Source of the DNA: Clostridiales bacterium
Lineage (GTDB): Bacteria; Bacillota; Clostridia; Acetivibrionales; RGIG10202
Assembly: GCA_017961515.1 (NCBI GenBank)
Contig: JAGCXC010000094.1
Coordinates: 9,222 to 73,221 of the forward strand
DNA length: 64,000 bases
Reading direction: 5' to 3'
Shown here in pieces: positions 2,302 to 50,652 of the stretch. Position numbers and translations under genes: made by a program. Numbering within the stretch: the first letter of the stretch is position 1; each line of letters opens with the position of its first letter. The notes under the pieces are model-generated. The model was not told the origin of the DNA. It saw only the letters and a list, made by a program, of their open reading frames with translations, and made no database searches.

Positions 2302-4722
2302 TTACTCCCTCGTTTTGCCATTCTTATCTACGTGCGTAATTTCCTCACACATGCACGCTCTTTTCTTTTCCTTATTTGATTCCCCTCTCTCCTCTTCTCC
2401 TAATAACTTGTAAAACCTATCTTTATCTTTCGCTTTTCCTGGATTTATTGCTCCTTTTCCTATAAGATATTTAGTCATCTTTATATCTTCTCTCTCAAAT
2501 GCTATTCCTACTGCCGTCCATCCACTATTGTCTATATTGTACACTAGTTCACTTTGTTTATTAACTAATGTTTCTACCACCTTCATATATCCTCCTTGAC
2601 ACGCATGCATCAATAAGTCTTTGCCGTTTTTGTCGACCATATTTACATCAACGCTATCTATCATAGCGTCTATTATAAATGCCATACTTTCGCCTTGCTC
2701 TAGCGCATACATCAATACACTTTTATCCCTAGCATCTTTTAACTCTACATTTGCTCCTCTCTCTACTAACTTTCTTGCTATATCAACATTCCCTCTTCTT
2801 ATTGCGTACATCAATGCACATCTTTTGTTCTTATCTGATTCATCAACATTAATCCCTTTGTCTAATAGCTTTGTTACTTTTTCTATTGTGCATCCACCAA
2901 TAATTAATTTAAGCAACACGTATTTTTCTATATTCTTTTGCTCATTCTTATTTATTTCCACTCTCTTTTCCACTTCTTTTGCACCGTAACTTTTCAATAT
3001 TTTTCTAATGTTTTCATTTACAGCCACCTTAAGGTATATTTCATCTTTCGTTACATCTATTCCCGTATCTAATAATTGCCTTACCTTAGCCTCATCTGAT
3101 TGTCTACACGCATCTATCAATCTATATGATATCTTTGCAGTAAGTATCCCATTAACATAATTTAATATATTTTTTCTGCCACATAATTCATCTATTATAT
3201 ATTTGTCATCCTTTATATATTGCAGAGATTCTATTGTTTTTTTAACGCCAAATCTGTCTACTAAATATCGTGTAACCTCTCTATTCGATTTACTAAAACA
3301 TTTTCCAAGACTTCCTGGCCCTATTATTCCCTCAGTGTCTAATATCTTAGCTAGTTCATTTATGTTACCATCCCTACAAGCAACTAACATCTTTTCTTTG
3401 TTTTTATTCTTAAGAATATTTAATATTACTTTATTTTTTGCCAAGTTTAGTGGTTTATCCCCACTGTCATTAACTGCATTTATATTTACTCCGTCGTATG
3501 ACAATAATTTTTTTATTATCTTTAAGTGCCCCTCTCTACATGCTACGTGCAATAGCGTATCTCCATTTTTTACAATTTCATTTACATTTTGATTTGATAA
3601 TAATTCGGTTACTATATCTGTGTACCCTTTGTAACATGCTGCACCAATTGGTGTGATTCCTTCAATATTAGCCTTATTCTTATCTGCACCCGCTTCAAGC
3701 AATTTTTTTACTACATCAATATGTCCCTTTTGGCTTGCTAAATATAGTGGCGTAACTTCTCTGCTGTTAGTTACATTTACATTTGCACCTGCCTTAATCA
3801 ATTTATCCACTATAGGCAGGCATCCATTATAGCAGGCTAAATATAGTGGAGTCTCTTCCCCATTCCTGGATTGCTCTGTATTCGCACCAGCCTCAAGCAA
3901 TTTTTCTACCACAACTACCCGCTTGTTCATACACGCAACATATAAAGGTGTAATTCCTTGGTTTGCTAGCTTATCTATATCTGCTCCCGCCTCCAAAAGC
4001 TTTTCTACTACTCCTGCATACCCTAACTCACTTGCTATATGTAATGGTGTACAACCATCGTCTCCACCCTTATTTATATCTGCTCCTGCCTTTATCAACT
4101 CATCCAATATCTCTTTCTGATTAACTGTACACGCCACATACGTTGGTGTTGTACCCGTATTATCTTCTGCATTTACGTCTACCCCAACCTTTAATAATAT
4201 CTCTACCACATTTTTAAATCCATAAAAGCACGTTACATGTAGTGGCGTATACCCATTTTCATCTGGTATATTTACATCTGCTCCTGCCTCTAATAATTTC
4301 TTTAATACATCCAATTTCCCCTTTTTACATGCTTTATACGCAGGTGTAGTTTTCGATTTATCTAACGAATTTACGTCTGCTCCTACCTCCAACAGTTTTT
4401 CTACTATTTTTTTATATCCACAATAACTCGCCAAATGTAGCGGTGTATATCCATCTATATCCTTCACATCTACTTTTGCTCCCAAACTCAATAATCTTTC
4501 TACCACCTTCAAGTTTCCTATTTCACACGCCCTATGTAGTGGTGTAGTTCCTCTTTCATTTACTGCATTTATGTCTTTGCCTTCTATTATCTTCAAATAA
4601 CCCTTTTTCTGCGCTTCGTATAATGGCACAAGCCCAGAACCATCAATGTCCTTGTCAAAATCAGTTTTTAATATTTTACTTGTTTTGGAAAATTCCATTT
4701 TTTCATTCTTTTCTGCTCTCAC
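2302..4722 (-). CDS. Ankyrin-repeat protein (~806 aa): about 13 N-terminal ANK repeats, a non-repeat middle, and more ANK repeats near the C-terminus
   Basis: Repeated 33-aa units of the form G.TPLH.A...G...VV..LL..GA.VN throughout. The probable start is GTG at 4722, 6 nt after AAGGAGG. There is no signal peptide or TM segment. Confidence 0.9.
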   Translation of the reverse strand: MRAEKNEKMEFSKTSKILKTDFDKDIDGSGLVPLYEAQKKGYLKIIEGKDINAVNERGTTPLHRACEIGNLKVVERLLSLGAKVDVKDIDGYTPLHLASYCGYKKIVEKLLEVGADVNSLDKSKTTPAYKACKKGKLDVLKKLLEAGADVNIPDENGYTPLHVTCFYGFKNVVEILLKVGVDVNAEDNTGTTPTYVACTVNQKEILDELIKAGADINKGGDDGCTPLHIASELGYAGVVEKLLEAGADIDKLANQGITPLYVACMNKRVVVVEKLLEAGANTEQSRNGEETPLYLACYNGCLPIVDKLIKAGANVNVTNSREVTPLYLASQKGHIDVVKKLLEAGADKNKANIEGITPIGAACYKGYTDIVTELLSNQNVNEIVKNGDTLLHVACREGHLKIIKKLLSYDGVNINAVNDSGDKPLNLAKNKVILNILKNKNKEKMLVACRDGNINELAKILDTEGIIGPGSLGKCFSKSNREVTRYLVDRFGVKKTIESLQYIKDDKYIIDELCGRKNILNYVNGILTAKISYRLIDACRQSDEAKVRQLLDTGIDVTKDEIYLKVAVNENIRKILKSYGAKEVEKRVEINKNEQKNIEKYVLLKLIIGGCTIEKVTKLLDKGINVDESDKNKRCALMYAIRRGNVDIARKLVERGANVELKDARDKSVLMYALEQGESMAFIIDAMIDSVDVNMVDKNGKDLLMHACQGGYMKVVETLVNKQSELVYNIDNSGWTAVGIAFEREDIKMTKYLIGKGAINPGKAKDKDRFYKLLGEEERGESNKEKKRACMCEEITHVDKNGKTRE

Positions 4723-4998
4723 AATTATCCTCCTTATATCTCTAGCTACCGCCACATTTTATATATTATTCTATTTTACCTTCACTACCCTAACTTTTTT
4801 GTCAAATAATAACTATAAACTGACTACCAGATTATATAATACTTTGCACAAATTGTAAACAGTAATATGTAACATAATCATTAATGTTTTTTTATCTCAA
4901 ATACCTTTTTAGAGGAGGCCGTAAAATATAGAAATGTATAAAATTTTCCATTGGAATCTATATAAAAGTCACTTTCAATTGTTTTTAAAATACTTTTC

Positions 4999-5029
4999 AA
5001 AAAAAAAGGGAGAAAATCACATTTCCCCC
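4999..5029 (-). terminator. Rho-independent terminator downstream of the superoxide reductase gene
   Basis: On the minus strand GGGGGAAA-UGUGAU-UUUCUCCC forms an 8-bp stem (one G-U pair) at 5008-5029, followed by a run of 9 U (plus-strand A-run 4999-5007). Confidence 0.8.
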
Positions 5030-5051
5030 AAAAATAATAATTAAAAATATC

Positions 5052-5429
5052 TTATATGCTTTTTGCAAAAAAACCATGTAAATTGCAATAAGCGTACAAT
5101 GTGCCTTTACCCATATTCAAAAATCTCGCTTCTGCTTTTTGCTCTGGATATAACTTTACAATATCACATCTATCACCTGTTACATACGCGATAAATGACA
5201 TATAGTGTTCTTTTGTCATACCATGAGTCATAGAAACATAATACTCATTTTCAATAGTATCACAAGTCATTGTGTGCTTCTCATTCTCTGGCATTGGCTC
5301 TAATGCCTGCAAATTAGAACCACAACAGTAAACTTTACTATCTACCATTGAATGAATTATGTTTCCACAAATCGGGCATACATAAAATTTGGATTTTGAC
5401 ATATCTTTCTGTGTACTTTGATTATTCAT
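5052..5429 (-). CDS. dfx: Desulfoferrodoxin-type superoxide reductase (2Fe-SOR)
   Basis: N-terminal desulforedoxin-like C-x2-C...CC (YVCPICGN...VYCCGS). Centre II ligand pattern: EKH, THGMTKEH and a C-terminal YCNLHG. AGGAGG lies 9 nt upstream of the ATG. Confidence 0.88.
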   Translation of the reverse strand: MNNQSTQKDMSKSKFYVCPICGNIIHSMVDSKVYCCGSNLQALEPMPENEKHTMTCDTIENEYYVSMTHGMTKEHYMSFIAYVTGDRCDIVKLYPEQKAEARFLNMGKGTLYAYCNLHGFFAKSI

Positions 5430-5521
5430 TTTTGTATTCCTCCTGTAATTTAGAATTTTTCTTTATACTAAAGCACAACTAGTACTTTTCTAAGTATAAA
5501 TACAAAAATTTGTGACATCCT

Positions 5522-5718
5522 CCCCTACCTACACCTCAAATTTTTGCCATAAAATTCTCGGTGTGGAGGTAGGGGCTTCCTTTTGCAACAATGTGCAAAC
5601 AGTCGGTTCTCCTTCGATAGCACTAATGTGCTAAGACAGTACGATGCTTATCCCGTGTGCCCCACGGTTTTTTATTTTCTATGTTGCAATTCATCTCACC
5701 ACCTATAGAGGTGGGAGA
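5522..5718. ncRNA. Candidate structured RNA or cis-regulatory leader; family and strand unresolved
   Basis: Five hairpins are packed into about 200 nt of non-coding sequence between the rplL terminator and dfx. They lie at 5522-5575 (14 bp with a 2-nt bulge), 5583-5598, 5618-5633 (6 bp, tetraloop), 5653-5667 (followed by T6 on the plus strand) and 5694-5718 (9 bp with a 1-nt bulge). No ORF with an RBS is present. Confidence 0.3.
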
Positions 5719-5735
5719 ATTCTTGCTAATATCTG

Positions 5736-5767
5736 TTAAAAAGCTCGTTACTACAAACGTAACGAGC
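5736..5767 (-). terminator. Rho-independent terminator of the rplJ-rplL operon
   Basis: 9-bp perfect stem: GCTCGTTAC (5743-5751) pairs with GTAACGAGC (5759-5767) across a 7-nt loop. U5 follows on the minus strand. It begins 27 nt after the rplL stop. Confidence 0.85.
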
Positions 5768-5793
5768 CTTTATCGAACAATTATGTAAAATAA

Positions 5794-6174
5794 TTACTTT
5801 ATTTCTACTGTTGCTCCGATTTCTTTAAATTTAGCTTCTATTGAAGCTGCTTCGTCTTTTGATACACTTTCTTTTAATGTAGCTGGTGCAGAACTTACTA
5901 GATCTTTAGCCTCTTTTAATCCTAATCCTGTAAATTCTCTTACTAATTTAATAGCTTGTATCTTCTCTGATCCACCGTCTTTTAATACAACAGTAAACTC
6001 AGTTTTTTCCTCTGAAGCTGCTGCTCCACCTGCTGCCGGTGCTGCTGCTACTGCTACTGGAGCTGCTGCTGATACACCAAACTTCTCCTCTAATTCTTTT
6101 ACTAACTCTGATAACTCTAAAACTGTTAAAGCCTCTACTTCTTCAATTACCTTTAATACTTTTTCACTAGCCAT
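5794..6174 (-). CDS. rplL: 50S ribosomal protein L7/L12
   Basis: Typical L12 sequence: Ala/Pro hinge ([18 protein letters not shown]) and C-terminal domain [18 protein letters not shown]. The ATG at 6174 is 8 nt after GGAGGA. The ORF-track TTG at 6180 is too close to the RBS. Confidence 0.97.
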
Positions 6175-6215
6175 TTTCAATATCCTCCATTTGTCAAATT
6201 ATTTTTTTTATTTTT

Positions 6216-6749
6216 TTACGCATTTGCTTTTTTCTCTGCAATCGCATTCAATGCAACAACTAGTCCTCGTAAATTTCCGTTAAGAACATTTACAAAGCCT
6301 GCAATTGGTGAATTGAATCCTGCAAGTACTTTCGCAATAAGCTCTTCTCTTGATGGTAACTCTGACAACTCTTTTATCTTCTTCTCGTCAAAGATACTTC
6401 CCTCTACTATTCCTATTTTTACTTCAAGATGCTCAAACTTTTTAGCAAACTCCTCTATCACCTTAGCAGGAGCTACAACATCCTCATAACTATATGCTAT
6501 AGCTGTAGGTCCATTTAAATACGCATCCACTTCACTATAACCACTATTGTTCATAGCAAACCTAGTAAGTGTATTCTTCACAACTTCATACTTAACATTT
6601 GCTTTTCTAAGAGCAGTTCTAAGTTCTGTATCTTGCTCAACTGTCAATCCTCTATAATCAACAAGTACAACTGTCTTCGAATTAGAAATCTTTTCTGTAA
6701 GTTGCTCAACTATAGTCTTTTTAGCCTCCAATATTTGCTTACTTGGCAC
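6216..6749 (-). CDS. rplJ: 50S ribosomal protein L10
   Basis: L10 family sequence in the conserved position upstream of rplL. GTG start preceded by AGGAGGAGG. Confidence 0.96.
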   Translation of the reverse strand: MPSKQILEAKKTIVEQLTEKISNSKTVVLVDYRGLTVEQDTELRTALRKANVKYEVVKNTLTRFAMNNSGYSEVDAYLNGPTAIAYSYEDVVAPAKVIEEFAKKFEHLEVKIGIVEGSIFDEKKIKELSELPSREELIAKVLAGFNSPIAGFVNVLNGNLRGLVVALNAIAEKKANA

Positions 6750-6979
6750 TATTGTTCACCTCCTCCTAAATATACCGGCAATACAAACAAGCCCTCAATA
6801 GGTTCTGCCTACGAGGACTTGTTTTAGAGTATATTTTTTAGACAACACTTAAACAAAATCCTCGGTAGGTAAATTTTTATATATTCTATATAGAATACAA
6901 CCTACTGTCTTCGGCATAATGCATTTACAAAAGATATTATATACTATAAATTAACCTTTGTAAATAGTTTTTTTTATTA
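6750..6979 (-). promoter_or_regulatory. rplJ 5' leader, probable L10(L12)4 autoregulatory leader
   Basis: A 230-nt untranslated gap lies between rplA and rplJ, with strong hairpins at 6788-6821 and 6864-6908. Firmicute rplJ operons are known to carry an L10-binding leader in this position. The family assignment was not verified by covariance model. Confidence 0.55.
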
Positions 6980-7675
6980 TTATTCCATAACCTTTGCAGG
7001 ATTAATTTTTATTCCAGGACCCATTGTAGACGCAATAACCAAGCTCTTTATGTATTGGCCTTTTGAAGCCGATGGCTTTGCTTTAACTACTGCCGCTAAT
7101 AATGTGCGGAAGTTTTCTGTTAATTTTTCTGTCCCAAATGACGCCTTTCCTATTGGACAGTGTATAATATTAGTTTTATCTAATCTATACTCTATCTTTC
7201 CGGCCTTTATATCAGCTATGGCTTTTGTTATATCCATTGTAACTGTACCTGCTTTAGGATTTGGCATTAACCCCTTAGGTCCTAACACCTTACCTAGTCT
7301 ACCAACTACACCCATCATGTCAGGAGTTGCTACTACAACATCAAACTCAAACCAATTGTCATTTTGAATTTTTGCTACTAAATCTGCATCCCCTACATAA
7401 TCAGCTCCGGCCTTCTCTGCTTCAGTAGCTTTATCTCCCTTAGCAAATACTAACACTCTTACTTTTTTCCCTGTTCCATGAGGTAACACAACCGCACCTC
7501 TTACCTGCTGATCCGCGTGCCTTGAATCTACTCCAAGTCTTATATGAACTTCTATTGTCTCATCAAACTTAGCCTTCGCTGTTTGCTGAACCAAACCTAA
7601 TGCCTCTTCAGGATCATATAATTTCAACTTATCAACAAGTTTTGAACTTTCAGCATACTTCTTTCCTTTTTTCAT
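6980..7675 (-). CDS. rplA: 50S ribosomal protein L1
   Basis: L1 family sequence ([32 protein letters not shown]). Conserved rplK-rplA order. Confidence 0.97.
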
Positions 7676-7731
7676 ATTATTTCACTCTCCTTGTGGTAAA
7701 TTTTACGGAAACTCCTAAATTTCCTCCCACA

Positions 7732-8178: not shown

Positions 8179-8317
8179 CTTTTCCACCTCCCAATTTTTT
8201 ACAAAACGCGAATAATACACTTAACCTTAGGTGCATAGTTCACTTTTTAATATAACAAACACCTGTAGGTTGATACTAACCTACCAGCGTGTATTTTATC
8301 AACAAATTAACTATTTG

Positions 8318-8854: not shown

Positions 8855-9044
8855 CTAATTCCCTCCCTTCCTAATAGGTATGGTAAAACTTTTCCAAAAC
8901 CTAAATACTTTAACAACATATAAGCCTCTTGATATAGCCCAATAAGTCTATTAGAAACCTAATCACTTACGGCATCACAAGAAGCATATTTCTTATGTTT
9001 TTTTTGCATGTCAACACCTTGAAACAATAACCATGTCAAAATAT

Positions 9045-9732: not shown

Positions 9733-9760
9733 TTGACAAACTTTCTTTTTTTGATACAAT
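9733..9760 (+). promoter_or_regulatory. Sigma-A type promoter for the orphan plus-strand gene
   Basis: TTGACA (9733-9738), a 16-nt spacer, then TACAAT (9755-9760) preceded by TGA (extended -10 TGnTACAAT). Confidence 0.7.
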
Positions 9761-9797
9761 GTATAGTTGTATTAATATTGCAAAAAGGAGTTATATT

Positions 9798-11468
9798 ATG
9801 TTTGGTAAAATTGCTACATGTGCGTTAAATAAATCTTTGAGAGACGATCCTTTTAGAGATACCCTAGATAATGCAATATCTTGTGGTAACTATGCCACCG
9901 TTAAATCTTTTTTAGATAGAGGAGCTATGCTTAACTTAGATATTAGCAATACAAAATCTTGTCTTAATATAGTTATTTTGAATAAGGACATCAAAACTTT
10001 GTATGTTCTATTAAATCATATAATATACAGAACAGAAAATGCTACATGTTTGTACGATAAAAAAGTTTCATCTTTGTTAACTACTTCAGACATTTCTAAA
10101 AAGTCCCCTATACGTACAGCTATAGATATGTTTTTATCATCTAGTTCTTTTGATGATAAAAAATTTTTCAAGCAATGCATTAAATTGCTTTATAATAACC
10201 CGTTATTCGATAAAAATAATTCTGAATTGTTTAATACTAATTGGAAAACAACTTCCAATTATTTCTTAGAATATAATCAATCTCTTTTGAAATCAGTTGA
10301 AAATTATGTACTTGATACCAAAGATCGAGAATTAATACAATTTTTCATAGAAAATGGATTAAACTATGTAGATAGCGCTATATTATGCGTTAATCCTAGC
10401 TTTTACTCACACTCAGCCATAATTATCAAATTTAACAAGCCAATTAAATTTAGAGATTCACTAGAAAATGTGGCAGGTATACTATATAGTTTCGCTCTTA
10501 AGGGAAAAACTGACAATTCTAAAATAACTTTTTGGGATAGAAATTTACATTCATTAGAACAAATAAAAAGTTTTATACTATCATGCAATGCTTATATGCA
10601 TAGAATATTTCTTACATCTCATGATTTTTCAAAAATGGACAAGTTTAGCGGCAATTCTATATTTGACTGTTCTTTGGTAGAGTCATCTTATGTTCATGAG
10701 AGTGTTTCATCTACATTCAATATTTTAAAAAACCTTAGAAAAGTTCCTGATTCCTCTTGGATAAGGCTTAATCCATTACTGAAAGAATTTACATCAAATG
10801 TTGAAAAAATGTCTTATTTGTTTAGTCTCTACAACTCTAATGCTATAAATTTTGCTTCAAAAGACAAAATTTCAGATTATTCTTTTGATTCAGGATGCCT
10901 TGTATTAAATTTAAATAATACAGGAAAAAGTGTCTATGAATTTATATGGGAAAAGCCAAAACGTCTTAATTTATCCCACGATCAAAAACTTGACATCATA
11001 GAAAAATTTCTTAATATGGAATGTTTAAAAGTTCTAAAAGAAAACTCTATACTATCAGTGGATTCTATTACATTTTCATTAGATGACTTTTACAAATTGC
11101 CAAGAACATATCCAAATGACTTACATGAAAAATTTTATTACCCAAAAACTCTTAAGCTTGATCTTAATTTTGATCCTTCAACTTCTGCCTTAAGAGATGC
11201 TGCAACCGTAGCACAGTGTGGTTATAAAATGATGTCTATGTTAGAAAATTTTAATATTCATTTAGAAACTTACTCTTTCTTTAGAAAAAACTGTGTAACC
11301 ACTCTAAAGCAGATTCTGTCTGAATGCGGCTATAAAGATCATATAGATCAATTGGATAAAAATCTTAACATATTTCAAAAAATACATCCTCTAACTGTAG
11401 TCACAAGACTTCAGCGATTGATTAAGAAAAAAAGTAAAAACCTTATCAAAGGAAAAGATATGGTTTAA
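9798..11468 (+). CDS. Hypothetical protein (556 aa), Ser/Asn/Lys-rich, with one ANK-like N-terminal unit and a C-terminal Y..FF..NC.T motif
   Basis: ATG at 9798 follows AAGGAG by 7 nt. The ORF-track start at 9759 overlaps the -10 box. The N-terminus DTLDNAISCGNYATVKSFLDRGAMLNLD resembles a single ankyrin unit. No family is recognised for the rest. It is the only plus-strand gene in the first 34 kb. Confidence 0.7.
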   Translation: MFGKIATCALNKSLRDDPFRDTLDNAISCGNYATVKSFLDRGAMLNLDISNTKSCLNIVILNKDIKTLYVLLNHIIYRTENATCLYDKKVSSLLTTSDISKKSPIRTAIDMFLSSSSFDDKKFFKQCIKLLYNNPLFDKNNSELFNTNWKTTSNYFLEYNQSLLKSVENYVLDTKDRELIQFFIENGLNYVDSAILCVNPSFYSHSAIIIKFNKPIKFRDSLENVAGILYSFALKGKTDNSKITFWDRNLHSLEQIKSFILSCNAYMHRIFLTSHDFSKMDKFSGNSIFDCSLVESSYVHESVSSTFNILKNLRKVPDSSWIRLNPLLKEFTSNVEKMSYLFSLYNSNAINFASKDKISDYSFDSGCLVLNLNNTGKSVYEFIWEKPKRLNLSHDQKLDIIEKFLNMECLKVLKENSILSVDSITFSLDDFYKLPRTYPNDLHEKFYYPKTLKLDLNFDPSTSALRDAATVAQCGYKMMSMLENFNIHLETYSFFRKNCVTTLKQILSECGYKDHIDQLDKNLNIFQKIHPLTVVTRLQRLIKKKSKNLIKGKDMV

Positions 11469-16469: not shown

Positions 16470-16498
16470 ATTGTACGATTTTTTTTGCAAAATGTCAA
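16470..16498 (-). promoter_or_regulatory. Consensus sigma-A promoter for typA
   Basis: On the minus strand: TTGACA (16498-16493), a 17-nt spacer, then TACAAT (16475-16470). It overlaps the stop codon of the upstream ORF. Confidence 0.75.
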
Positions 16499-17274
16499 GA
16501 TATTATACATCCCATATCTTTACCTTTTTGGGAGTTTCTTTCTTTTTTTATATCAAGCTTTACACCTTTTTCTATATTCCTTAGCTCTACAACAGCGTCT
16601 ATATCTTTCAATGTTAATCTTTTTTCTATTTTTTCTTCACCTTTTTGTTTGTTATAAATATCTATTAATGTAGGATCCATCCCACTTGCAGGTAAAATAG
16701 TTCTATTATCATCAAGTGATATTATATCAAAATTTTCTTTTATATCGTTTATAAACTTGTCCACTCCTTTTGTGTCTAAAGTTCTTGCTATGGTTTCCTT
16801 TTGACGCAATAAGCCATTTCTAGCTTGCTCCAAATTACGCACTTTCTCCTGATCGTTTTTTCTTATTTCTGATCCATTTTCACCGTAAAAACTTCTTTCA
16901 GTAATACCCATCATATTTAAAGCAATGTCGTAATCTCTAAATAGCTTCACTCTTCTATTTATCCCATCAACAACAACATCAAGTGATTTATTAATTTCAT
17001 TTGCTACAATATTATCAATTTGAGCATCATATTGAGGTTTGTATTCTACATCATTTATTCTACTACTAAGCGCTTTTAATCCTCTTAACAAAAGACACGC
17101 ATTCCTTTTAGTTAACTCTTTTATTTTATCTTTCACCTCAAACAATTCTTCATTTAAGGCATCTCTATATTTGTAAGCACTCGCCACCCTATTAATTGAT
17201 TCATCAAGCATAGCCACATTTAAATCTTGTATTTTTGCATCAACTGATTTTAATAATTCTTCTACATTTACCAT
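16495..17274 (-). CDS. Hypothetical helical / coiled-coil protein (259 aa), last gene of the ankyrin block
   Basis: Long ORF with AGGAGGGG upstream. Charged, heptad-like composition and no recognisable family motif. Confidence 0.6.
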   Translation of the reverse strand: MVNVEELLKSVDAKIQDLNVAMLDESINRVASAYKYRDALNEELFEVKDKIKELTKRNACLLLRGLKALSSRINDVEYKPQYDAQIDNIVANEINKSLDVVVDGINRRVKLFRDYDIALNMMGITERSFYGENGSEIRKNDQEKVRNLEQARNGLLRQKETIARTLDTKGVDKFINDIKENFDIISLDDNRTILPASGMDPTLIDIYNKQKGEEKIEKRLTLKDIDAVVELRNIEKGVKLDIKKERNSQKGKDMGCIIS

Positions 17275-17375: not shown

Positions 17376-18299
17376 CTAACTATCTATCACCTTATTTTTA
17401 GACCTACTTATGTATTGACTAATGTTTTGAATTATACCCATCTCAAACTCTCTTCTTGCTGCCTTTATAAATCCCACAATTTGTTTTCTTATGTTGTCAA
17501 TTTTATTAACTTCTTTGGGTGCTCTGTTCCCTTTTTTCATTTCATTCAACTTTGGAAGTAATATCTTTAAAGAATTTGCAAAGTTATTGGCCCAATCTGC
17601 TTTTACATTTTTTTCTATTATTCTATTTACCTCCATGTTTGAAACCACTTTATTATGATTCCTCCAATATGTCTCGAAAAATTTACCCAAATCATCTAAT
17701 CTTTCAACATCGTTTAAATATATAGCTTTCATTAAATTTAATACTGGATATTCTTCTGTTACATCCTCATTTATATAATCCAGATACTTTTCAAGTTTTA
17801 AAATACTTGCTCCATGCTCTATAAGATATTCAGACATTTCCATATTTCTACTAAGCCATGCTCTCGTTAACGGAGTAAAACCTTTGTTATTACTAACATT
17901 AACTTGTGCTCCTTTTTCCACCAAGCACTTCACTGCCTCCATTTTTCCTCTAATACACGCTATCATCAATGGAGTAAAACCGTCTTTATCTTTCACGTCA
18001 ACCTGCGCTCCTTTTTCCACCAAATAATTTACTAATTCCTTATTCCATTTACCAAAAGCGTGTCCTAATGAATTAAATCCATCTTTATCTCTCACATTTA
18101 CTTTTGCCCCTTTTCCCACTAAAAACTTTACTAATTCCAAATCTCCATTCCCTGATGCATACATCAATGGGGTATAACCAGCTTTGTCAGCAATATTAAC
18201 TTTTACCCCTCTTTCTAATAAAATTTCTACTTCTCTTTTATCTCCTAAAATACAAGCTCTTAACATTAATTCCTCTGGTGTAAATTTTGACTTTTTCAT
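17376..18299 (-). CDS. Ankyrin-repeat protein, paralog A (307 aa): ~5 ANK repeats plus the conserved C-terminal module
   Basis: ANK units (GYTPLMYASGNGDLELVKFLVGKGAKVNV and others). The C-terminal module lies at 17379-17759 (EEYPVLNLMKAIY...KFFETYWRNHN...FANSLKILLPKLNEMKK...KIDNIRKQIVGFIKAARREFE). Confidence 0.9.
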   Translation of the reverse strand: MKKSKFTPEELMLRACILGDKREVEILLERGVKVNIADKAGYTPLMYASGNGDLELVKFLVGKGAKVNVRDKDGFNSLGHAFGKWNKELVNYLVEKGAQVDVKDKDGFTPLMIACIRGKMEAVKCLVEKGAQVNVSNNKGFTPLTRAWLSRNMEMSEYLIEHGASILKLEKYLDYINEDVTEEYPVLNLMKAIYLNDVERLDDLGKFFETYWRNHNKVVSNMEVNRIIEKNVKADWANNFANSLKILLPKLNEMKKGNRAPKEVNKIDNIRKQIVGFIKAARREFEMGIIQNISQYISRSKNKVIDS

Positions 18300-18411: not shown

Positions 18412-19521
18412 CTACATTGATCTTCCTTTATCCTTACCCCTAATTTCGTTAATATTTTGAATTACACCAATCTCGCGCTCTCTTCTTTCTGTCTTTATAA
18501 ATTCAATAATTTGTTTTCTTATATTTTCAATTTTATCAAGTTCACTTTTTGCTCTACTTTCCTTTTTCATCTCGTCTAATTTAGGAAGTAATCTCTTCAT
18601 TGAATTAGCAAAATTATTAGTAAAATCTGCTTTCATTGTCCTTTCTAGCATCCTTCCCGACTTCCCTCTTGCACTTACTATATTATGATTTCTCCAATAC
18701 CCTTCAAAGAACTTGTTTAGGTCTGATATTTCCTCTAAGTCTTTTGTATATAAAGCCTTCACAAAATGCAATATTGGATATTCTTCTGTAGGATAATCAA
18801 TATAATTCGTATATTCTTCTAAGCCTAAAATGTCCGCTCCTTTTTCTAATAAATACTCAATCATTTTAGGATCTGCAAAATCCTCTTCTGTTAACTTAAT
18901 TAATATAGTTGCTCCATTTATATCCCGTGCATTAACATCTGCTCCCATATCTACTAAATACTTTACTATTTCCATGTTATTTATCTCACACGCACGCATT
19001 AAAGGAGTAGTTAAATTTTCATCTTTAGCATTAACGTTTGCTCCTTTATTTATCAAATATTTTACTGTTTTTAAATTGCCATACTCACATGCATACATTA
19101 ATGAGTCAATACCAAATTCATTACTTTCATTAATATCCAATTTCTTTTCTTCTACCAAATATTTTACTATAGCTAATTCTTTGCTTGAACAAGCGTTGAT
19201 CAATGACGTGTTATTAAACTGATCCTTTTCGTTAATATTGGCACCTTTCCCCTCAAGATATTTTACTATCTTTAAGTTTCCTCCTTTACACGCACTCATA
19301 ATTACAGTTCTTCCAAATTGATCCTTTGCATTAATATCTGCTCCGTTTTCAACCAAGTACTTTACCAATTCATAATTACCACTACCACACGCAAACATAA
19401 GTGGTGTATTTTCAAAAGAATTTTTCACATTAACATTTACCTTATTTTGAACTAAACGCTCCACTTCGGTTATATCCCCGTATCTACACAATTCTAATAA
19501 TTTTTCTTCTTCATTTGTCAT
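18412..19521 (-). CDS. Ankyrin-repeat protein, paralog B (369 aa): ~7 ANK repeats plus the conserved C-terminal module
   Basis: ANK units throughout. The C-terminal module lies at 18451-18789 (EEYPILHFVKALY...KFFEGYWRNHN...FANSMKRLLPKLDEMKK...KIENIRKQIIEFIKTERRERE). GAGGAG RBS. Confidence 0.9.
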   Translation of the reverse strand: MTNEEEKLLELCRYGDITEVERLVQNKVNVNVKNSFENTPLMFACGSGNYELVKYLVENGADINAKDQFGRTVIMSACKGGNLKIVKYLEGKGANINEKDQFNNTSLINACSSKELAIVKYLVEEKKLDINESNEFGIDSLMYACEYGNLKTVKYLINKGANVNAKDENLTTPLMRACEINNMEIVKYLVDMGADVNARDINGATILIKLTEEDFADPKMIEYLLEKGADILGLEEYTNYIDYPTEEYPILHFVKALYTKDLEEISDLNKFFEGYWRNHNIVSARGKSGRMLERTMKADFTNNFANSMKRLLPKLDEMKKESRAKSELDKIENIRKQIIEFIKTERREREIGVIQNINEIRGKDKGRSM

Positions 19522-41331: not shown

Positions 41332-41344
41332 AACACACTCCTCC

Positions 41345-43623: not shown

Positions 43624-45234
43624 TTATTTTTTCTCCCATTCTCTAACTATATCTCTATTTTGATCATTGCATTTTGTCATTAAATTTTTAGGTTTTCCGC
43701 CCAAAGCCCACAGCGGTGGTCTTAGAAAATTATCTATTAGACTACATTTGGTTTTATTTTGGCTAGAGCTTAAATATAAAACACCAAATGAAACCATATT
43801 ACAGAGAATACCTATATGCACAAATATACCGATGAATACTCCTACAATCCCCGCTATACTTCCTAAGAAAATATAAAAGAAACGCAATATCCTAAATGAA
43901 AACGCAATAGAAAAATTAGGTACCGCAAATGAACCTATCCCTGTGATGGCCACGATAATTATCAATATTGGGCTTACTATATTAGCACTAACTGCAGCTT
44001 GCCCAAGTATTATACCCCCAACAATACCTAACGTGGATCCAATTGGTTCGGGTACCCTTATGCTTGCCTCACGTATCAACTCAAATGAAATTTCCATAAA
44101 CACAAGTTCAATTAATGCCGAAAACGGTATTCGTTCTCTAGTAGCTTCTAACGCTATTAATAGATCTGTTGGTATTATCTCTTGATGAAAATTTATTATT
44201 GCTATATAAAACCCGGGTAAAAATAGCACCGCAAATATTCCCAGCATGCGCACTACACGCAATAAATTTGATGAAGGAAATCGTATATAGTTATCTTCTG
44301 CTGAATAAATAAGCTCATCGTGCGTTATGGGCATAATTAACGCAAATGGGCTTCCATTTACTATTACCCCAACTTTGCCTTCAGTTAAAAATCTGGAAAA
44401 TCTATCTGGGCGCTCTGTTGATAAAACTTGAGGAAATGGTAAGTATGGATTATCTTCTATCAGTTGTTCTAACTCTCCTGATGCCACCAAATAATCTATC
44501 TTGATACCTTTAAGCCTTCTTTTTACTTCATCTACTATACTATCGTTTACAATATCTTGTATATAGCATATGCTACACAAGGTCCGGCTTTTCTCTCCTA
44601 TGGTTATACTCTCTATTATCAAATTTTCATTGTCTACTATTTTTCTTACCAGAGCCGTATTAGTTCTAATTTTCTCTGTAAACCCTTCCTGTGGGCCACG
44701 AATAACCATCTCTGAACATGGCTTATCGACGCTTCTAGTATCCCAATCCTTTACATCCGCTAAAATAGCCAACTCTGCACCATTAATAAATATAGCACAT
44801 TCACCTATGTTCACGCCAGACACAACATCCGAAATTTTATTCGTTTTCTTAATCTGATTATGCGCTATAAGATTTTTTTCAACATAATCTACTATATTTG
44901 TGTTTTGTGTCACCATATCAATATTACTTAGTATCATAAGTGGTGTTATTATGTTGTCGTCTATAAACTTTGAATTACACATGCCATCAATAAAAAATAT
45001 AAATGCTCGATAAACTTTCTTCTCTATTCTCACACCAAACTCTCTTATTTGTATATCCTCATTTATTGATACATTATATAATTTCTTAAGATAAGATAAA
45101 TTCGTATCAATGTTTATGCTAACATCAGGGTACACTTTTGTTTGGACCGTGTTATTGGTGTAATTTTCATCTTCTAGCAAAAACGTGTTGTCATGTGGCT
45201 CCTTAAACAATATCAAATTTTTTATCTTATTCAC
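43624..45234 (-). CDS. Spore germination receptor subunit, GerAA family
   Basis: GerA family core (FPQVLSTERPDRF) and a C-terminal multi-TM region; 536 aa. Confidence 0.9.
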   Translation of the reverse strand: MNKIKNLILFKEPHDNTFLLEDENYTNNTVQTKVYPDVSINIDTNLSYLKKLYNVSINEDIQIREFGVRIEKKVYRAFIFFIDGMCNSKFIDDNIITPLMILSNIDMVTQNTNIVDYVEKNLIAHNQIKKTNKISDVVSGVNIGECAIFINGAELAILADVKDWDTRSVDKPCSEMVIRGPQEGFTEKIRTNTALVRKIVDNENLIIESITIGEKSRTLCSICYIQDIVNDSIVDEVKRRLKGIKIDYLVASGELEQLIEDNPYLPFPQVLSTERPDRFSRFLTEGKVGVIVNGSPFALIMPITHDELIYSAEDNYIRFPSSNLLRVVRMLGIFAVLFLPGFYIAIINFHQEIIPTDLLIALEATRERIPFSALIELVFMEISFELIREASIRVPEPIGSTLGIVGGIILGQAAVSANIVSPILIIIVAITGIGSFAVPNFSIAFSFRILRFFYIFLGSIAGIVGVFIGIFVHIGILCNMVSFGVLYLSSSQNKTKCSLIDNFLRPPLWALGGKPKNLMTKCNDQNRDIVREWEKK

Positions 45235-45294
45235 TCGTTTTCACCTCAAGTGATATATTACCCAATACTTTTTTTATATATGCATAGGTCAATT

Positions 45295-47115
45295 TTAATA
45301 CCTTTTAGCTACCTCTATATGGTGATTTATATTTATATTAGTTAATGCTTCCATTATGTTTTTGTCTCCTCTTATTTGAGAAATTTGATATACATCATTC
45401 CCGTTACTATCCATATCCGACGTCTTTGCCCCATACTGCAACAACAATTTTACAACATCCTTTCCCCAATATTTTACAGCATATACCAATGCCGTACCAT
45501 ATTCTCCTCTTGCATTAATGTTAGCCCCATTCTCTAGCAATAGTTTTGCTATTTTGAAATTATTTTTTTCGTTTTTTATATAAGTCAAAAATGTATATAT
45601 AAGTGCAGTTGCCCCATTCTTTGTTTTCGCATTAACGTTTGCTTGGTGTTCTATCAAATATTGCGCTACTTCAAATGACTTAAATTCGCATGCATACATT
45701 AATGCTGTTTGATTGCATCTACCCTTTTCATTCACATTCGCTCCTCTTTCTACTAATATCTTTACCACCTCAAAATTGTTTTGTTCGCATGCAATCATAA
45801 GCGCCGTATTCCCATTGCTTGCTCTATCATCTACGTTGGCACCAATGTCTAATAAAAATATTATCGCTTTGGGGTTCTTATTTTTACATGCCTTTACCAA
45901 AAGAGAATCTCCATTTATATCTTTCTCATTCAAATTTATACAATTATATTTATGTAATATATTAAGTGCTTTCATATCGTCATTTTTAAGCAAATATTCT
46001 TGCAATATCATACCTTCATTTTTTATCATCAATATGGATTTATTCTTACTTATGATTTTTATTTGATCTTCTATCTTTTTGCAACTCTTAACTTTATCTA
46101 ACATTTTTTTTATGTTTATAAGGTATCCTTCATCTACCAGCATTCTATATATAGCCTCAAATTTCATTATCCTACTTTGACCACAAAATATATTCGCCGC
46201 GAAAAAATCTGATATCTCACACTCTTCTCCACTATTACGAAAATAATTTGTGGCCCAATTCAATATATGATTGTAAAATTCTCCTTCGTTTTTACATTTA
46301 TCTCTTACATCATTTAACATCTCATGTAATAACAGTTCTTCTAAATCTATTGTTTTTATAAATCTTTCTATGTCTCTTTTTTCGATATTTATACCATATG
46401 GATCAGTTTCTTGTGGCACTGGCACATTAAAATTATATTTACTGTTTAAATATTTTTTGAAAAAATCCTCCATATGTGGATCAGTAAATTCTCTTCTTCC
46501 TGTCTTTATATAAACTTCATTCATTAATTTATTTGCAAGTTTTATCCTAGCATTTAAAAAAAGTTTGTCTAATGCACGTCTTAATGGATTTGGGTCTTCC
46601 TCTATTTTTATCTTACCTTGCGTTATGCTTTCGACATGTTCTCCTAACATACACACTATTTCAACAATCCCTCTTCTTTGGCCTGTAATGCAAACATCTC
46701 CCAAACTCGATAATAGATCCACAATTCCATATACTTGCGTATTATCTAAATCATCACTTGACTCTATAATCTTTGCAATACAAACCAATGCATTGGCATA
46801 TATTTCATCATTTACAATACTACTTTTATATAATTTTTTTATACCAGCACTATTAAGGCAAAATTTAGCATCCCTTAGTTTTAATATTATATTCTGATAA
46901 ATTAATCTACTAAGCTTTTGTGTTAGTTTTGAATAGTTAAGATTCCCAAACTGTCCTAAAATATCATCAACACCCCCTTTTTTATACGCTCTTTTTGTTA
47001 GTTTAGTTTTCATAGGTAATTTCCGAATAAAATATGTGATGTTGTTTTCCATTTTTTTAAACACCCAAATAATATATGTTTTTATAATATATGCAATATA
47101 TTTTTTGCTTGACAC
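45295..47115 (-). CDS. Protein with an unknown ~375-aa N-terminal domain and ~6 C-terminal ankyrin repeats
   Basis: ANK units occupy the C-terminal third (NGNTALMIACEQNNFEVVKILVERGANVNE and others). The start is uncertain: GTG at 47115 has no convincing RBS, and internal ATGs are possible. Confidence 0.8.
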   Translation of the reverse strand: MSSKKYIAYIIKTYIIWVFKKMENNITYFIRKLPMKTKLTKRAYKKGGVDDILGQFGNLNYSKLTQKLSRLIYQNIILKLRDAKFCLNSAGIKKLYKSSIVNDEIYANALVCIAKIIESSDDLDNTQVYGIVDLLSSLGDVCITGQRRGIVEIVCMLGEHVESITQGKIKIEEDPNPLRRALDKLFLNARIKLANKLMNEVYIKTGRREFTDPHMEDFFKKYLNSKYNFNVPVPQETDPYGINIEKRDIERFIKTIDLEELLLHEMLNDVRDKCKNEGEFYNHILNWATNYFRNSGEECEISDFFAANIFCGQSRIMKFEAIYRMLVDEGYLINIKKMLDKVKSCKKIEDQIKIISKNKSILMIKNEGMILQEYLLKNDDMKALNILHKYNCINLNEKDINGDSLLVKACKNKNPKAIIFLLDIGANVDDRASNGNTALMIACEQNNFEVVKILVERGANVNEKGRCNQTALMYACEFKSFEVAQYLIEHQANVNAKTKNGATALIYTFLTYIKNEKNNFKIAKLLLENGANINARGEYGTALVYAVKYWGKDVVKLLLQYGAKTSDMDSNGNDVYQISQIRGDKNIMEALTNININHHIEVAKRY

Positions 47116-47193
47116 AATGCTTTTCTACATTTAGTATAGTAGTTAGTTGACATTTTCAACACAATTAAACAACTCAAGGGAGATGTATTTTAA

Positions 47194-48201
47194 ATGGCAC
47201 AGCGAACTCATATATCAAATGATGAAATGCCAAATTTTTTAATAGATTACTTAAATTATTTAGAAACAATAAAAGGAAAATCTAAGAATACTATACTAGC
47301 CTATTCTTACGACTTAAGACTATTCTTACGATTTATTAAAGTACATAAACAATTAGTTGATAAAGATAACTTCGAAGATATTTCAATAAAAGATTTTTCC
47401 ACAGAAACTTTAGAGGATATCACTTTAAGCGATTTATACTCTTTTTTGTCCTTTGTAAATAGAGAACGCACCAACTCTTCTTACGCTCGTGCTAGAAAAG
47501 TCGCTAGTCTTAAATCATTTTTTAACTATCTAACAAATAAAGTAAAGATTGTATCGCTAAATCCTACTCGTGAATTGGAATCACCTAAAATACTAAAAAA
47601 ACTCCCTCGCTATTTAAATGTCGCTGAAAGCAAGAATCTCTTAAATTGTGTAGCATCACAAAAAAGTGCTCACAAATTTCGTGACTTTGCAATGTTAACA
47701 CTCTTTTTAAACTGTGGCATGCGTTTGTCTGAACTTGTGGGAATAAACTTAGACGACATAAGAAACAACACTATATCAGTCACTGGTAAGGGGGGAAAAG
47801 AACGCATAATCTACTTAAATCACGCTTGTGTCGATGCATTGAATAATTATCTAACTCAAAGACCTATTGACGGAGTTATAGATAAAAATGCTTTATTTTT
47901 AAGCTCACGAAAAACCCGCATTAGCAAAAATACTGTTCAATTTATTGTAAAAAAATACATCCGTATGTCGGGACTTGATGCAAAAAAGTATTCTACGCAC
48001 AAATTAAGACACACGGCCGCAACTTTGATGTATAAGCACGGCAAAGTAGATGTTCGCGCACTTCAAAAAATACTAGGGCATGAAACTTTAGCTACTACCC
48101 AAATCTACACTCATTTAGATAATCAACAACTACAAGATGCATTAGACAATAATCCATTGGCCGACTTCAAGCCAAAAGATTCTTCAAATACTACAGATTA
48201 A
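47194..48201 (+). CDS. Tyrosine recombinase, XerC/XerD family
   Basis: N-terminal SAM-like core-binding domain. Catalytic residues are in order (R in GMRLSEL, HKLRHTAAT, LGHETLATTQIYTHL with the nucleophile Tyr). Confidence 0.9.
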   Translation: MAQRTHISNDEMPNFLIDYLNYLETIKGKSKNTILAYSYDLRLFLRFIKVHKQLVDKDNFEDISIKDFSTETLEDITLSDLYSFLSFVNRERTNSSYARARKVASLKSFFNYLTNKVKIVSLNPTRELESPKILKKLPRYLNVAESKNLLNCVASQKSAHKFRDFAMLTLFLNCGMRLSELVGINLDDIRNNTISVTGKGGKERIIYLNHACVDALNNYLTQRPIDGVIDKNALFLSSRKTRISKNTVQFIVKKYIRMSGLDAKKYSTHKLRHTAATLMYKHGKVDVRALQKILGHETLATTQIYTHLDNQQLQDALDNNPLADFKPKDSSNTTD

Positions 48202-48223
48202 ATTTTTTGTCTAGAAAATCTAT

Positions 48224-48267
48224 AAAAAAACTCTGGTCAAAATACTTAAAAACCAGAGCTATTTTTG
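48224..48267. terminator. Bidirectional terminator between the recombinase and the 787-aa ANK gene
   Basis: 7-bp stem: CTCTGGT (48231-48237) pairs with ACCAGAG (48252-48258). An A7 run lies on one side and CTATTTTT on the other. Confidence 0.65.
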
Positions 48268-48268
48268 T

Positions 48269-50623
48269 CTACATTCCTCTTCCCATATTATGTTCTATTT
48301 TAGGAGGAATAATTTTTTTATTTACCTTAGCTACATATATATTAGTTAACTCTTCCACAAAATTCTTTATTTTCTTGTCAAATTTAGAATCATACTTTTT
48401 ATAAATATTCTTAGCTAACATAAGACATTCTCTTAAACTCCCTATTTTGTCCTCTCTTTTTGCCTTGTCTCTAAAAAACTTTATATATTTATCTAACATA
48501 TTCATATTCTCATTATCTGCTGCAGCTTGTAATATAGGGAAACAATATTTTATATCTATTTTGATCCCTCTGTCTATCAACAAATTCACCATATTAGCAT
48601 CATGCTTCCAACACGCATAATCTAATACATTATGCCCTTCTCTATCTCTTTCATCTATATTAGCACCCTCATCTAACAACTTTTCAACTTCCTCTAAATT
48701 GCCATTCCAACATTGCTTTTGTAAATTGGTTGATCCAAATACCTTTTGTATCTCAAATTTCTTTTCATAAGCACCATTTTTTATTAAGTATATACATATA
48801 TCTGGATCCTTCGACACCAACGCTCTATATAATGGATTACGTCCAGCTTCGTTTTCTATATTTAAATTAGCTCCATGTTCCACCAAACTTTTTACTAAGT
48901 CTAGATTTTTTCTCTTACACGCTATATATAACGGAGTACGTCCATTATAATCCTTACAATCCACATCGGCGCCATTTTCAATTAAATATTGGGCCATCTT
49001 AATATTATTTTTTTTGCATGAATAAATCAGTGCCGTTGTATCATCATCAGCTTTTAAATTAACATCTGCCTTCATACCTACTAAATATTTCACTATATTA
49101 AGGTCTCCGTTAACACATGCTCTATAAAGTGGCGTATATCCATCATCATCCACTTTATTTATATCTGCACCACTCTCTACTAAATGCTTCACTATATCAA
49201 GGCCTCCCCTAATACATGCCATATGTAGTGATGTAAATCCATTATCATCCACTTTATTTATATCTGCACCATTTTCTACTAAATGCTTTACTATATCAAG
49301 ATTTCCACTCTCACACGCTACGTATAATGGTGTATGTCTATTAACATTCTCTTTATTTACATCTGCACCCATATCTACCAAACACTTCACTATATCAAAA
49401 TCTCCCAGCATACATGCTATATGTAATGGTGTATGTCTATCAACATCTTCTATATTTATATCTCCACCACTCTCTACTAAAAATTTTATTAAATCTGGAT
49501 TCTTTCCAAAACATGCATTGTGTAAAGGGAATTCTCCATTTTCATCTTCTTCATCAATTTTTAGCCCTCTATTTACTAACTCTTTTACTTCTTCCAAATT
49601 ACCTTTACAGCATCTGTCTCTAAAAATTCTTTTAGTTTCCTCAATTTCTCCATATTCTTCTATCTCGGCTATATTCTCTTCCACACCATTCTCTCTTTCT
49701 CTAACTGGTGCTTTTGTCTTAACTATATTTACTAAATTCATCCAGAATTTTTTTAGCTTATCTATAAATTTTTGTCCAACAGTTTTTAATAATTTCCCAA
49801 CACCTTCTATTGCATTAATCAACTTAACAAAACCATCACTCATGTTTTTACCTATATTTTCAAAAATACGGATGCATTTGTCTATTAGCCTTTCATCCTC
49901 TTCTTTTATTGCAACATCAAGTAAAGGTACGCACATGTCCATATCAAGATTAATTCCTCTATCAATTAGTAAATCTATCATCCTAGCATCATTTCTCCAA
50001 CACGCATAATCTAATACATTATACCCTTCTCTATCTTGTTCGTTTATATTAGCGCCTTCATCTAACAACCTTTCAACTTCCTCTAAATTACCATCCCAAC
50101 ATTTTTCCTGCAAATCGGTTGCTCCATACATTTCTTTTATACTCACTCTTGGATCGTATGCACCTTTTTTTATTAGATAATTTGATACCTTGTATGCAGC
50201 TATTGTATCAGCCAAATACAGTGGTGTCTTTTTTTCTCTGTTATGCACATTTACATCAGCTCCACTATCCACTAGATACTTCACTATATCCGTATTTTGT
50301 CCTAAACATGCGTACATTAACGGAGTATCTCCTATATTATTTCTTTTATGTATCTGTGCTCCCTTGTTAATTAAGTAAATAACAATATCTAAATCTCCTT
50401 CCTTACAAGCTTTATATAAAGGAGTATCTCCATTAGTAAGTTCTCTATTTATATCAGCCCCATTTTCTATTAAAACTTTTACTATTTCCAAATTACCCTT
50501 AGCACAGGCTATATATAAAGGAGTCCTACCCATACTATCCTGAATATTTATTTTTTCCCCGGAAATTATCTTCTGCTTTACTAATTCTAAATTATTTTTT
50601 TCACATGCTTCAATCAAACTCAT
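48269..50623 (-). CDS. Ankyrin-repeat protein (~784 aa) built from two copies of an [ANK array + tail] module joined by a helical linker
   Basis: ANK units throughout. The likely start is ATG at 50623, 9 nt after GAAGGAG; the ORF-track ATG at 50632 abuts the RBS. For the internal duplication see findings. Confidence 0.88.
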   Translation of the reverse strand: MSLIEACEKNNLELVKQKIISGEKINIQDSMGRTPLYIACAKGNLEIVKVLIENGADINRELTNGDTPLYKACKEGDLDIVIYLINKGAQIHKRNNIGDTPLMYACLGQNTDIVKYLVDSGADVNVHNREKKTPLYLADTIAAYKVSNYLIKKGAYDPRVSIKEMYGATDLQEKCWDGNLEEVERLLDEGANINEQDREGYNVLDYACWRNDARMIDLLIDRGINLDMDMCVPLLDVAIKEEDERLIDKCIRIFENIGKNMSDGFVKLINAIEGVGKLLKTVGQKFIDKLKKFWMNLVNIVKTKAPVRERENGVEENIAEIEEYGEIEETKRIFRDRCCKGNLEEVKELVNRGLKIDEEDENGEFPLHNACFGKNPDLIKFLVESGGDINIEDVDRHTPLHIACMLGDFDIVKCLVDMGADVNKENVNRHTPLYVACESGNLDIVKHLVENGADINKVDDNGFTSLHMACIRGGLDIVKHLVESGADINKVDDDGYTPLYRACVNGDLNIVKYLVGMKADVNLKADDDTTALIYSCKKNNIKMAQYLIENGADVDCKDYNGRTPLYIACKRKNLDLVKSLVEHGANLNIENEAGRNPLYRALVSKDPDICIYLIKNGAYEKKFEIQKVFGSTNLQKQCWNGNLEEVEKLLDEGANIDERDREGHNVLDYACWKHDANMVNLLIDRGIKIDIKYCFPILQAAADNENMNMLDKYIKFFRDKAKREDKIGSLRECLMLAKNIYKKYDSKFDKKIKNFVEELTNIYVAKVNKKIIPPKIEHNMGRGM

Positions 50624-50652
50624 CCTAATCATCTCCTTCTCATTAGGTTATA

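Follow-up and report, generated by a model that had tools for sequence, protein, structure and literature searches.

Why would an endospore-forming member of the Clostridia devote about a fifth of a stretch of otherwise ordinary chromosome to ankyrin repeats, and on what might the resulting proteins act? The question is raised by 64,000 nt of contig JAGCXC010000094.1 (assembly GCA_017961515.1, positions 9,222 to 73,221 of the forward strand; hereafter the window), in which nine genes code for ankyrin-repeat (ANK) proteins. Few genomic features mark bacteria that manipulate eukaryotes as well as large ANK repertoires do, and, to our knowledge, nearly all repertoires described so far come from Gram-negative lineages equipped with dedicated injection systems. 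An ANK load such as that of the window is highly unusual among Gram-positive bacteria. The explanation that accounts best for the observations as a whole combines build-up of the genes within the lineage, their residence at chromosomal breakpoints and an action of the proteins on a gut eukaryote; taken complete, it is given a probability of roughly 0.45.

Nine ankyrin-repeat genes at three loci

All nine open reading frames (ORFs) matched the families of the Pfam clan Ank (PF00023, PF12796, PF13637, PF13606 and PF13857) with 74-590 bits, far over the gathering scores (cut-offs of 21-27 bits), and the E-values for Ank_2 lay between 9e-31 and 9.5e-182. A hidden Markov model (HMM) made from the window's own repeats and run on ORFs of at least 50 aa located 82 repeats, every one of them within the nine genes, and revealed no tenth ANK ORF among the window ORFs of that size. 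The repeats are tandem units of ~33 residues with a period of 99 bp in the DNA, and the consensus common to the nine proteins (G.TPLm.AC..Gn.eiVkyLvE.GAnIN) contains the framework G-TPL-A-G-VV-LL-GA-N. Measured with the coordinates of the initial annotation, the ANK coding sequence amounts to 13,842 nt (4,614 codons) and occupies 21.6% of the window, which bears out the earlier estimate of about 4650 codons and one fifth of the sequence; by gene number, nine of the ~50 protein genes of the window are involved (~18%). The proteins had already been named 'ankyrin repeat domain-containing protein' in GenBank (MBP5427592 to MBP5427627, in the metagenome-assembled genome (MAG) of a 'Clostridiales bacterium'). 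A 569-aa orphan on the plus strand (X569, 9759-11468), with the lowest GC content in the window (27.7%) and no match in Pfam, NCBIfam or PHROGs, was considered as a tenth, degenerate ANK gene and rejected, since it holds one marginal, non-significant ANK-like segment.

The nine genes, all on the minus strand, form three loci. The first consists of A1 (2302-4722; 806 aa; MBP5427592.1), the most 'generic' of the nine proteins, which has 15 repeats in two blocks (Ank_2 1e-124); downstream of rplL, its gene is flanked by rubrerythrin and a desulfoferrodoxin-like gene. The second is a tandem cluster of six genes between the orphan X259, which adjoins typA, and a pair of DUF881 genes. It comprises B1 (17376-18299; 307 aa, 5 repeats; MBP5427607.1), B2 (18412-19521; 369 aa, 7 repeats), B3 (19603-21525; 640 aa, 14 repeats), B4 (21889-22941; 350 aa, 4 repeats; MBP5427610.1), B5 (22988-23800; ~268-270 aa, 4 repeats) and B6 (24142-25596; 484 aa, 10 repeats). 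The third, between gerAA and folA, is made up of C1 (45295-47052; 585 aa, 5 repeats; MBP5427627.1) and D1 (48269-50623; 784 aa, 18 repeats), which flank a single Xer-type tyrosine recombinase gene on the plus strand (47194-48201; below the XerC/XerD equivalog cut-offs). According to the gene calls of the source contig or the NCBI record, the starts lie at 4722 for A1, 23794 for B5, 25596 for B6 and 47052 for C1, some of them slightly shifted. Because C1 and D1 are parted by just one Xer-type gene, the four separate loci of the initial annotation reduce to three. The 10 kb beyond the window start contain no ANK genes.

The initial annotation had also described the genes as embedded in conserved core operons. 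Contrary to this, they occupy rearrangement or synteny breakpoints between operons and not operon interiors, a conclusion that follows from the context of each locus. The block typA-yceG-O-methyltransferase-U32 is conserved in all Acetivibrionales loci examined, and upstream of typA the window has nothing in common with any of them. The linkage of rplL with rpoB is near-universal and is broken in the window organism, where rplL is followed not by rpoB and rpoC but by the desulfoferrodoxin-like gene (5052-5429), A1 and rubrerythrin. The context of C1 also differs in a related species (L088), in which the orthologue comes after signal peptidase-addA-hydE/G/F instead of beside gerA.

The comparison with other Clostridia was based on the typA neighbourhoods of 80 related genomes found by a TypA scan (1,291,838 bases in all; neighbourhoods, not whole genomes). 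In these, the same HMM yielded one ANK ORF, which belongs to the closest relative (L002, 8391-9572). The local ANK density of the window is therefore ~180-fold higher, and the initial description of the load as extreme holds against these neighbourhoods. Further, L088, whose AddA is 69% identical and whose GC content and skew are the same, holds its C1 orthologue beside a second, unrelated ANK gene of 653 aa. Because of this pair and of the ANK gene of ruminal_MAG_481, elevated ANK content characterises the clade, in which the individual genes turn over rapidly. Literature searches gave no report tying ankyrin repeats to rumen bacteria or to Acetivibrionales. A separate contig (L085, 6394-13459; ENA ERZ27262656, with a run number close to that of the source sample) encodes a 950-aa ANK protein of 22 repeats and, after it, Metallophos, two VWA proteins and a protein kinase; with its window-like GC of 0.335 and skew of 0.26, it may represent another ANK-rich low-GC bacterium of the same habitat.

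Long residence and growth in place

The origin of the window was established from TypA, whose nearest species-level genome is Acetivibrionales bacterium ruminal_MAG_481 (90% identity), followed by Bacillota MAGs (~80%) and Acetivibrio mesophilus (79%). The name of the closest genome together with that of a matching scaffold, XIEF21-1_SAMN15830195, shows that the DNA derives from the ruminant gut; its source is an endospore former of the order Acetivibrionales (Clostridia) that has not been cultured. The scaffold name, with the form of the accessions, suggests a tentative link to the ruminant gut MAG study PMC8199421. The window corresponds to the reverse of ~18.5-82.5 kb in a 93,751-nt ENA contig (ERZ27256983:k141_332012). 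The A1 region is also contained in ERZ28018909 and in a 132.9 kb scaffold, ERZ28653446 XIEF21-1_SAMN15830195; two of these assemblies, when compared directly, showed 1 mismatch in 16 kb. Several Logan runs yielded assemblies with fragments of the window. Gene order agrees between at least three ENA assemblies, Logan runs and the NCBI MAG. A chimeric or contaminated contig, which the initial annotation had named as a possible source of the ANK load, is excluded for practical purposes because independent assemblies share this arrangement.

The composition of the genes provides evidence on how long they have been there. The GC content at third codon positions (GC3) is 0.25 in ANK genes and 0.29 in core genes, GC3 skew is 0.52 and 0.56, respectively, and codon use of the ANK genes correlates with that of the core genes at r = 0.96, where one half of the core genes correlates with the other at 0.99. 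Shine-Dalgarno sequences precede nine of nine ANK genes, and B3 has upstream a perfect sigma-70 consensus promoter, TTGACA-17-TATAAT, at 21642-21614. The conclusion from these findings, core-like composition and codon use on the one hand and bacterial expression signals on the other, is that the ANK genes are old, native bacterial genes and long-term residents of the chromosome, not a recent island.

An assembly artefact, eukaryotic DNA, a recent island or a prophage is thereby largely refuted and very improbable. Such a source would fit the tyrosine recombinase between C1 and D1, the IS200/IS605 genes beyond the window start and the many eukaryotic proteins among the best full-length matches of D1. 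However, the recombinase is Xer-like, no phage families beyond integrase were detected, and the picture is not that of a prophage or an integrative island, given a core-like composition and one mobility-type gene (attachment sites were not searched). The ANK genes also share the strand skew of the core genes and their leading-strand orientation. As for D1, its matches are 22-38% identical, which is generic ANK similarity; the search, which returned such proteins and a fragment of D1 itself, was discarded as a clue to origin. Its outliers were uninformative as well, both the best non-self match (P0002), which is the protein of L085 beside Metallophos-VWA-VWA-kinase, and the eukaryotic-looking P0076 of L090.

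The way in which the repertoire grew can be read at several scales. Tandem Repeats Finder detected 99-bp arrays at ~70-77% identity in B3, B6 and D1; the array of B3 (20126-21185) has 10.7 copies with 75% matches, and B6 contains two arrays. The ANK paralogues are 26-46% identical, and D1 contains a head-to-tail duplication of a complete unit, ANK block plus helical module, with 41% identity over 353 residues. A nearest-neighbour test pooled the window repeats with 1,791 others taken from the 119 database proteins that matched best. The nearest neighbour lay inside the window for 47 of the 81 window repeats, against a chance expectation of ~4%, and it belonged to the same protein in 27 cases, to the same locus in 10 and to another locus in 10. 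Together with the common consensus, these results show that the repertoire, which is one of soluble proteins, grew by duplication within the lineage: repeats multiplied inside genes, entire genes were copied in tandem, and one gene became joined to its own duplicate. Between in-situ expansion and acquisition, the alternatives left by the initial annotation, the evidence is thus on the side of expansion.

The genes among which this expansion took place constitute an ordinary Clostridia backbone, judging by the Pfam families of the larger ORFs. The GC content of the window is 33%, its GC skew ~-0.4 on the plus strand throughout the 64 kb and the third-position GC skew of its genes ~+0.56, an extreme strand asymmetry, and nearly all genes lie on the minus strand, with pta-ackA, X569 and the Xer-like recombinase as exceptions. 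The backbone includes rubrerythrin, the desulfoferrodoxin-like gene and rplL-rplJ-rplA-rplK-nusG-secE-rpmG; a U32 peptidase, an O-methyltransferase, yceG/mltG and typA; the two DUF881 genes, a PBP5-type carboxypeptidase, pyrimidine-nucleoside phosphorylase, ftsY and smc; pta-ackA, addA, signal peptidase and gerAC-gerAB-gerAA; and folA, valS, RNase J and a PhoH-like gene. Rfam added an ordinary ribosomal protein L10 leader upstream of rplJ (6773-6932, minus strand) and a single tRNA gene (61140-61210, minus strand) between the PhoH-like gene and an 832-aa ORF (61470-63968, minus strand). This ORF has no match in Pfam, NCBIfam or PHROGs, and its exact product is absent from the contig index searched. 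Beyond rubrerythrin (window 1-6180; L082 10853-15781) there are two large paralogous secreted proteins of 835 and 790 aa that belong to no family on record and, in contrast with the nine ANK proteins, have clear signal peptides. A small mobile or accessory patch lies near the A1 locus, ~4.6-8.5 kb past the window start (L082 16704-20612), with two helix-turn-helix regulators, a Fic-domain protein, a chloramphenicol acetyltransferase and IS200/IS605-type genes, namely a Y1 transposase and a TnpB/Cas12f-like gene.

Modules beyond the repeats and possible bacterial roles

Five of the six clustered proteins end in a common domain of ~135 residues, 43-55% identical between them, which is encoded at ~17379-17804 in B1, ~18415-18831 in B2, ~19606-20028 in B3, ~22991-23410 in B5 and ~24154-24579 in B6. 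B4 has instead another, unmatched C-terminal tail. AlphaFold predicts seven helices for the common C-domain (mean predicted local distance difference test, pLDDT, 76.6; predicted template-modelling score 0.72). No homologue was found in a word-indexed set of 5.8 billion proteins, and HMMER over 1.84 billion cluster representatives returned B1 and B5 alone; as B2, B3 and B6 are missing from that collection, absence of the domain there is not absolute. The domain was likewise absent from the JGI metagenome contigs and IMG/VR, it has no Pfam family and no PDB sequence, and Foldseek gave no fold match in PDB or BFVD. Over all sets together, ~15 billion predicted proteins yielded no relative. The genome-wide proliferation put forward in the initial annotation is at present no more than a hypothesis, as ~74 kb of the genome were covered and the B family looks confined to one tandem cluster, the exhaustive search having given just two genes of the window. 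A pattern in the domain, 'YP-L--L-----D---L-DL--FF--YW', had suggested an F-box or PRANC module; this idea was abandoned, because neither Pfam nor PDB sequences nor Foldseek searches of PDB and BFVD lent it support. Residues ~245-331 of D1 show a weak match to the domain.

C1 carries a different addition, a conserved, all-helical N-terminal domain of ~370 residues that was not assigned to any family. Besides an identical NCBI protein, its relatives are two full-length orthologues in Logan assemblies from two related species (57% and 51-54% identity). Its structural model is unreliable, with pLDDT below 50 for residues 1-154. The searches show both non-ANK modules, the C-domain of the B family and the N-domain of C1, as apparently lineage-specific additions to the ANK repertoire. 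A possible further component is X259 (16495-17274, minus strand), a 259-aa orphan downstream of B1 and upstream of typA, which is recorded in the NCBI MAG as hypothetical protein J6Y29_06975 and has no match in Pfam, NCBIfam, PADLOC or PHROGs. It might act as a partner of the B family.

These modules could serve the bacterium itself. The ANK proteins would then scaffold or link other proteins of the cell, for example in its architecture, in sporulation or in regulation, and the C-domain would dock a common bacterial partner, possibly X259, which is co-oriented with B1 and 101 nt downstream of it. The absence of export signals, the sigma-70-type promoter with normal ribosome-binding sites, and the long residence with core-like codon use are all consistent with such a role. 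Moreover, C1 is conserved over its full length in three species at 51-57% identity, against 69% for AddA, which fits a maintained cellular function. On the other hand, related Clostridia do without such genes, as the single ANK ORF in 1.29 Mb of typA neighbourhoods illustrates, and the adjacency to gerA is not found in L088. The turnover is also fast, the orphan domain being restricted to a single species and the ANK genes differing from relative to relative, which is more typical of genes directed at an outside partner. An intracellular role is therefore regarded as possible but doubtful.

A second bacterial role would be conflict with phages or rival bacteria. In phage defence the repeat arrays would be sensors or decoys that diversify; the other possible task is immunity to polymorphic toxins. 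A tandem, rapidly diversifying array with variable repeat number fits an arms race, and each of the nine proteins matches at least one ANK candidate model of PADLOC (PDC-M72A, 'Ankyrin', MzaA). Nevertheless, these matches run through the repeats alone: the scores for PDC-M72A, up to 395 bits, fall within the repeat arrays, and no partner genes are adjacent. A further hint came from the closest relative (L002), whose one ANK gene is in a variable region after the U32 peptidase, at the position of X569 in the window. This region contains a SUKH/SMI1-KNR4 immunity-type gene, the ANK gene ~1 kb downstream of it, with another ORF between the two, and a gene for a kinase-DUF5050 protein; no toxin domain was detected in it. 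In the window, the nine genes adjoin core genes, orphans or further ANK genes, and neither an effector domain (nuclease, TIR, protease or nucleoside triphosphatase) nor a toxin gene stands beside any of them. Arrays of 14-18 repeats exceed those of typical immunity proteins, and the specific domains have no relatives in IMG/VR, which also count against the conflict role and make it improbable.

A gut eukaryote as possible target

The reading placed first, tentatively, is that the ANK proteins are variable protein-binding modules that would act on proteins of a gut eukaryote. Bacterivorous ciliates dominate the rumen, and a ciliate of this kind would be the most plausible target. The action might follow engulfment of the bacterium or its spore and interfere with digestion or trafficking, as is thought for the ANK proteins of other eukaryote-associated bacteria. 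The array of 4 to 14 repeats in the B family would set target specificity, the shared C-domain may provide for delivery, anchoring or the binding of a partner, and export by a route that does not use a Sec signal peptide would be required. This reading is ranked first because of the link between ANK load and eukaryotes, the fast diversification, the combination of a variable array with a constant module, and the rumen habitat. ANK abundance has been reported to track eukaryote association rather than phylogeny, with ANK proteins making up ~2% or less in the richest bacteria (PMC3932732), and sponge-associated bacteria are likewise enriched (PMC6372511). In addition, low-GC (25-33%) Bacillota symbionts have been proposed in rumen ciliates (bioRxiv 10.1101/2025.07.29.667580), and the window has 33% GC.

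The portrait of a host-associated endospore former given by the initial annotation agrees with the gerA germination operon and with the ruminant gut metagenome from which the DNA comes; the eukaryote-directed use of the proteins was derived from the known link of ANK load with hosts. Several observations weigh against this use. A crude hydropathy scan of the nine proteins detected neither an N-terminal hydrophobic region nor a stretch hydrophobic enough to span the membrane (highest 19-residue Kyte-Doolittle mean, 1.37), in agreement with the lack of signal peptides noted earlier, and no secretion system was seen in the ~74 kb of contig read. The routes of ANK effectors known to us (type IV, type III and type VI secretion systems; T4SS, T3SS and T6SS) belong to Gram-negative bacteria. 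No F-box, PRANC or other eukaryote-directed domain was detected in the nine proteins (Pfam, E<=0.01; isolated C-domains, E<=10). The NCBIfam models of Dot/Icm effectors (T4SS_AnkX/H/Y/G/F/I/C/J/Q) gave C1 and B4 18-67 bits against cut-offs of 300-1400, through the repeats only. The neighbourhood is a normal set of housekeeping and sporulation genes with no sign of reduction, and the promoters look vegetative. ANK-rich free-living bacteria such as Desulfomonile also exist (PMC3932732), and nothing in the present data ties the organism physically to a ciliate, an association that we infer. With no export signal and no secretion system seen, action on a gut eukaryote is therefore the leading guess, not a result.

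Several known systems resemble that of the window, with differences in each case. The ANK repertoires of intracellular Gram-negative bacteria (the Dot/Icm effectors of Legionella and Coxiella, and those of Wolbachia, Rickettsia and Orientia) resemble that of the window in their many paralogues, high repeat numbers, lack of Sec signal peptides, lineage-specific extra domains and rapid turnover (PMC3932732). In contrast, the window organism is a Gram-positive spore-former in which neither a T4SS, over the same ~74 kb, nor genome reduction, over the window, was apparent. Sponge symbionts, sponge-associated Shewanella and Brachyspira are ANK-enriched and live among phagocytic cells without being obligately intracellular (PMC6372511; PMC3932732). 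Extracellular associates of the sponge type would be the closest ecological analogy to life in a ciliate-rich rumen. Unlike the window genes, which have no visible export route and a link to eukaryotes that is presumed, these cases are Gram-negative and have T3SS, T4SS, T6SS or signal peptides.

Poxvirus and Orientia proteins of the ANK-F-box/PRANC type combine a variable N-terminal ANK array with one conserved C-terminal helical module. The architecture of the B family is alike, a variable array followed by one helical module common to the family, whereas its C-domain differs from F-box and PRANC in its ~135 residues, in having no Pfam match at E<=10 and in lacking a sequence or fold match in PDB. 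The Bacillota symbionts of gut protists, Ca. Improbicoccus in termite flagellates and the Ruminococcaceae/Acutalibacteraceae candidates in rumen ciliates, are also Clostridia with low GC from a gut with protists. However, they have genomes of 0.7-1.6 Mb with broken glycolysis and, in one, an ATP/ADP translocase, whereas the window comes from a member of the Acetivibrionales that keeps sporulation, repair and biosynthesis genes. The preprint on rumen-ciliate symbionts does not mention ankyrin (bioRxiv 10.1101/2025.07.29.667580).

A bolder version of the eukaryote-directed reading would see this Acetivibrionales clade as Gram-positive, spore-forming associates of ciliates or other gut eukaryotes, whether symbionts, parasites or digestion-resistant prey, with the B family as home-grown effectors, its C-domain as a new module for delivery or host docking and an export route new to Firmicutes; taken together, this is unlikely.

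In conclusion, the new aspect of this locus is an ANK expansion in a Gram-positive spore-former together with an orphan, family-specific domain. Ciliate predation shapes the rumen community and its methane output. If the proteins are host-directed, they would represent an unrecognised interaction between bacteria and eukaryotes in the rumen, mediated by a new Gram-positive delivery route. The alternative meaning is that large ANK families can serve purely bacterial purposes. In either case, the C-domain of the B family provides a concrete handle for experiments.

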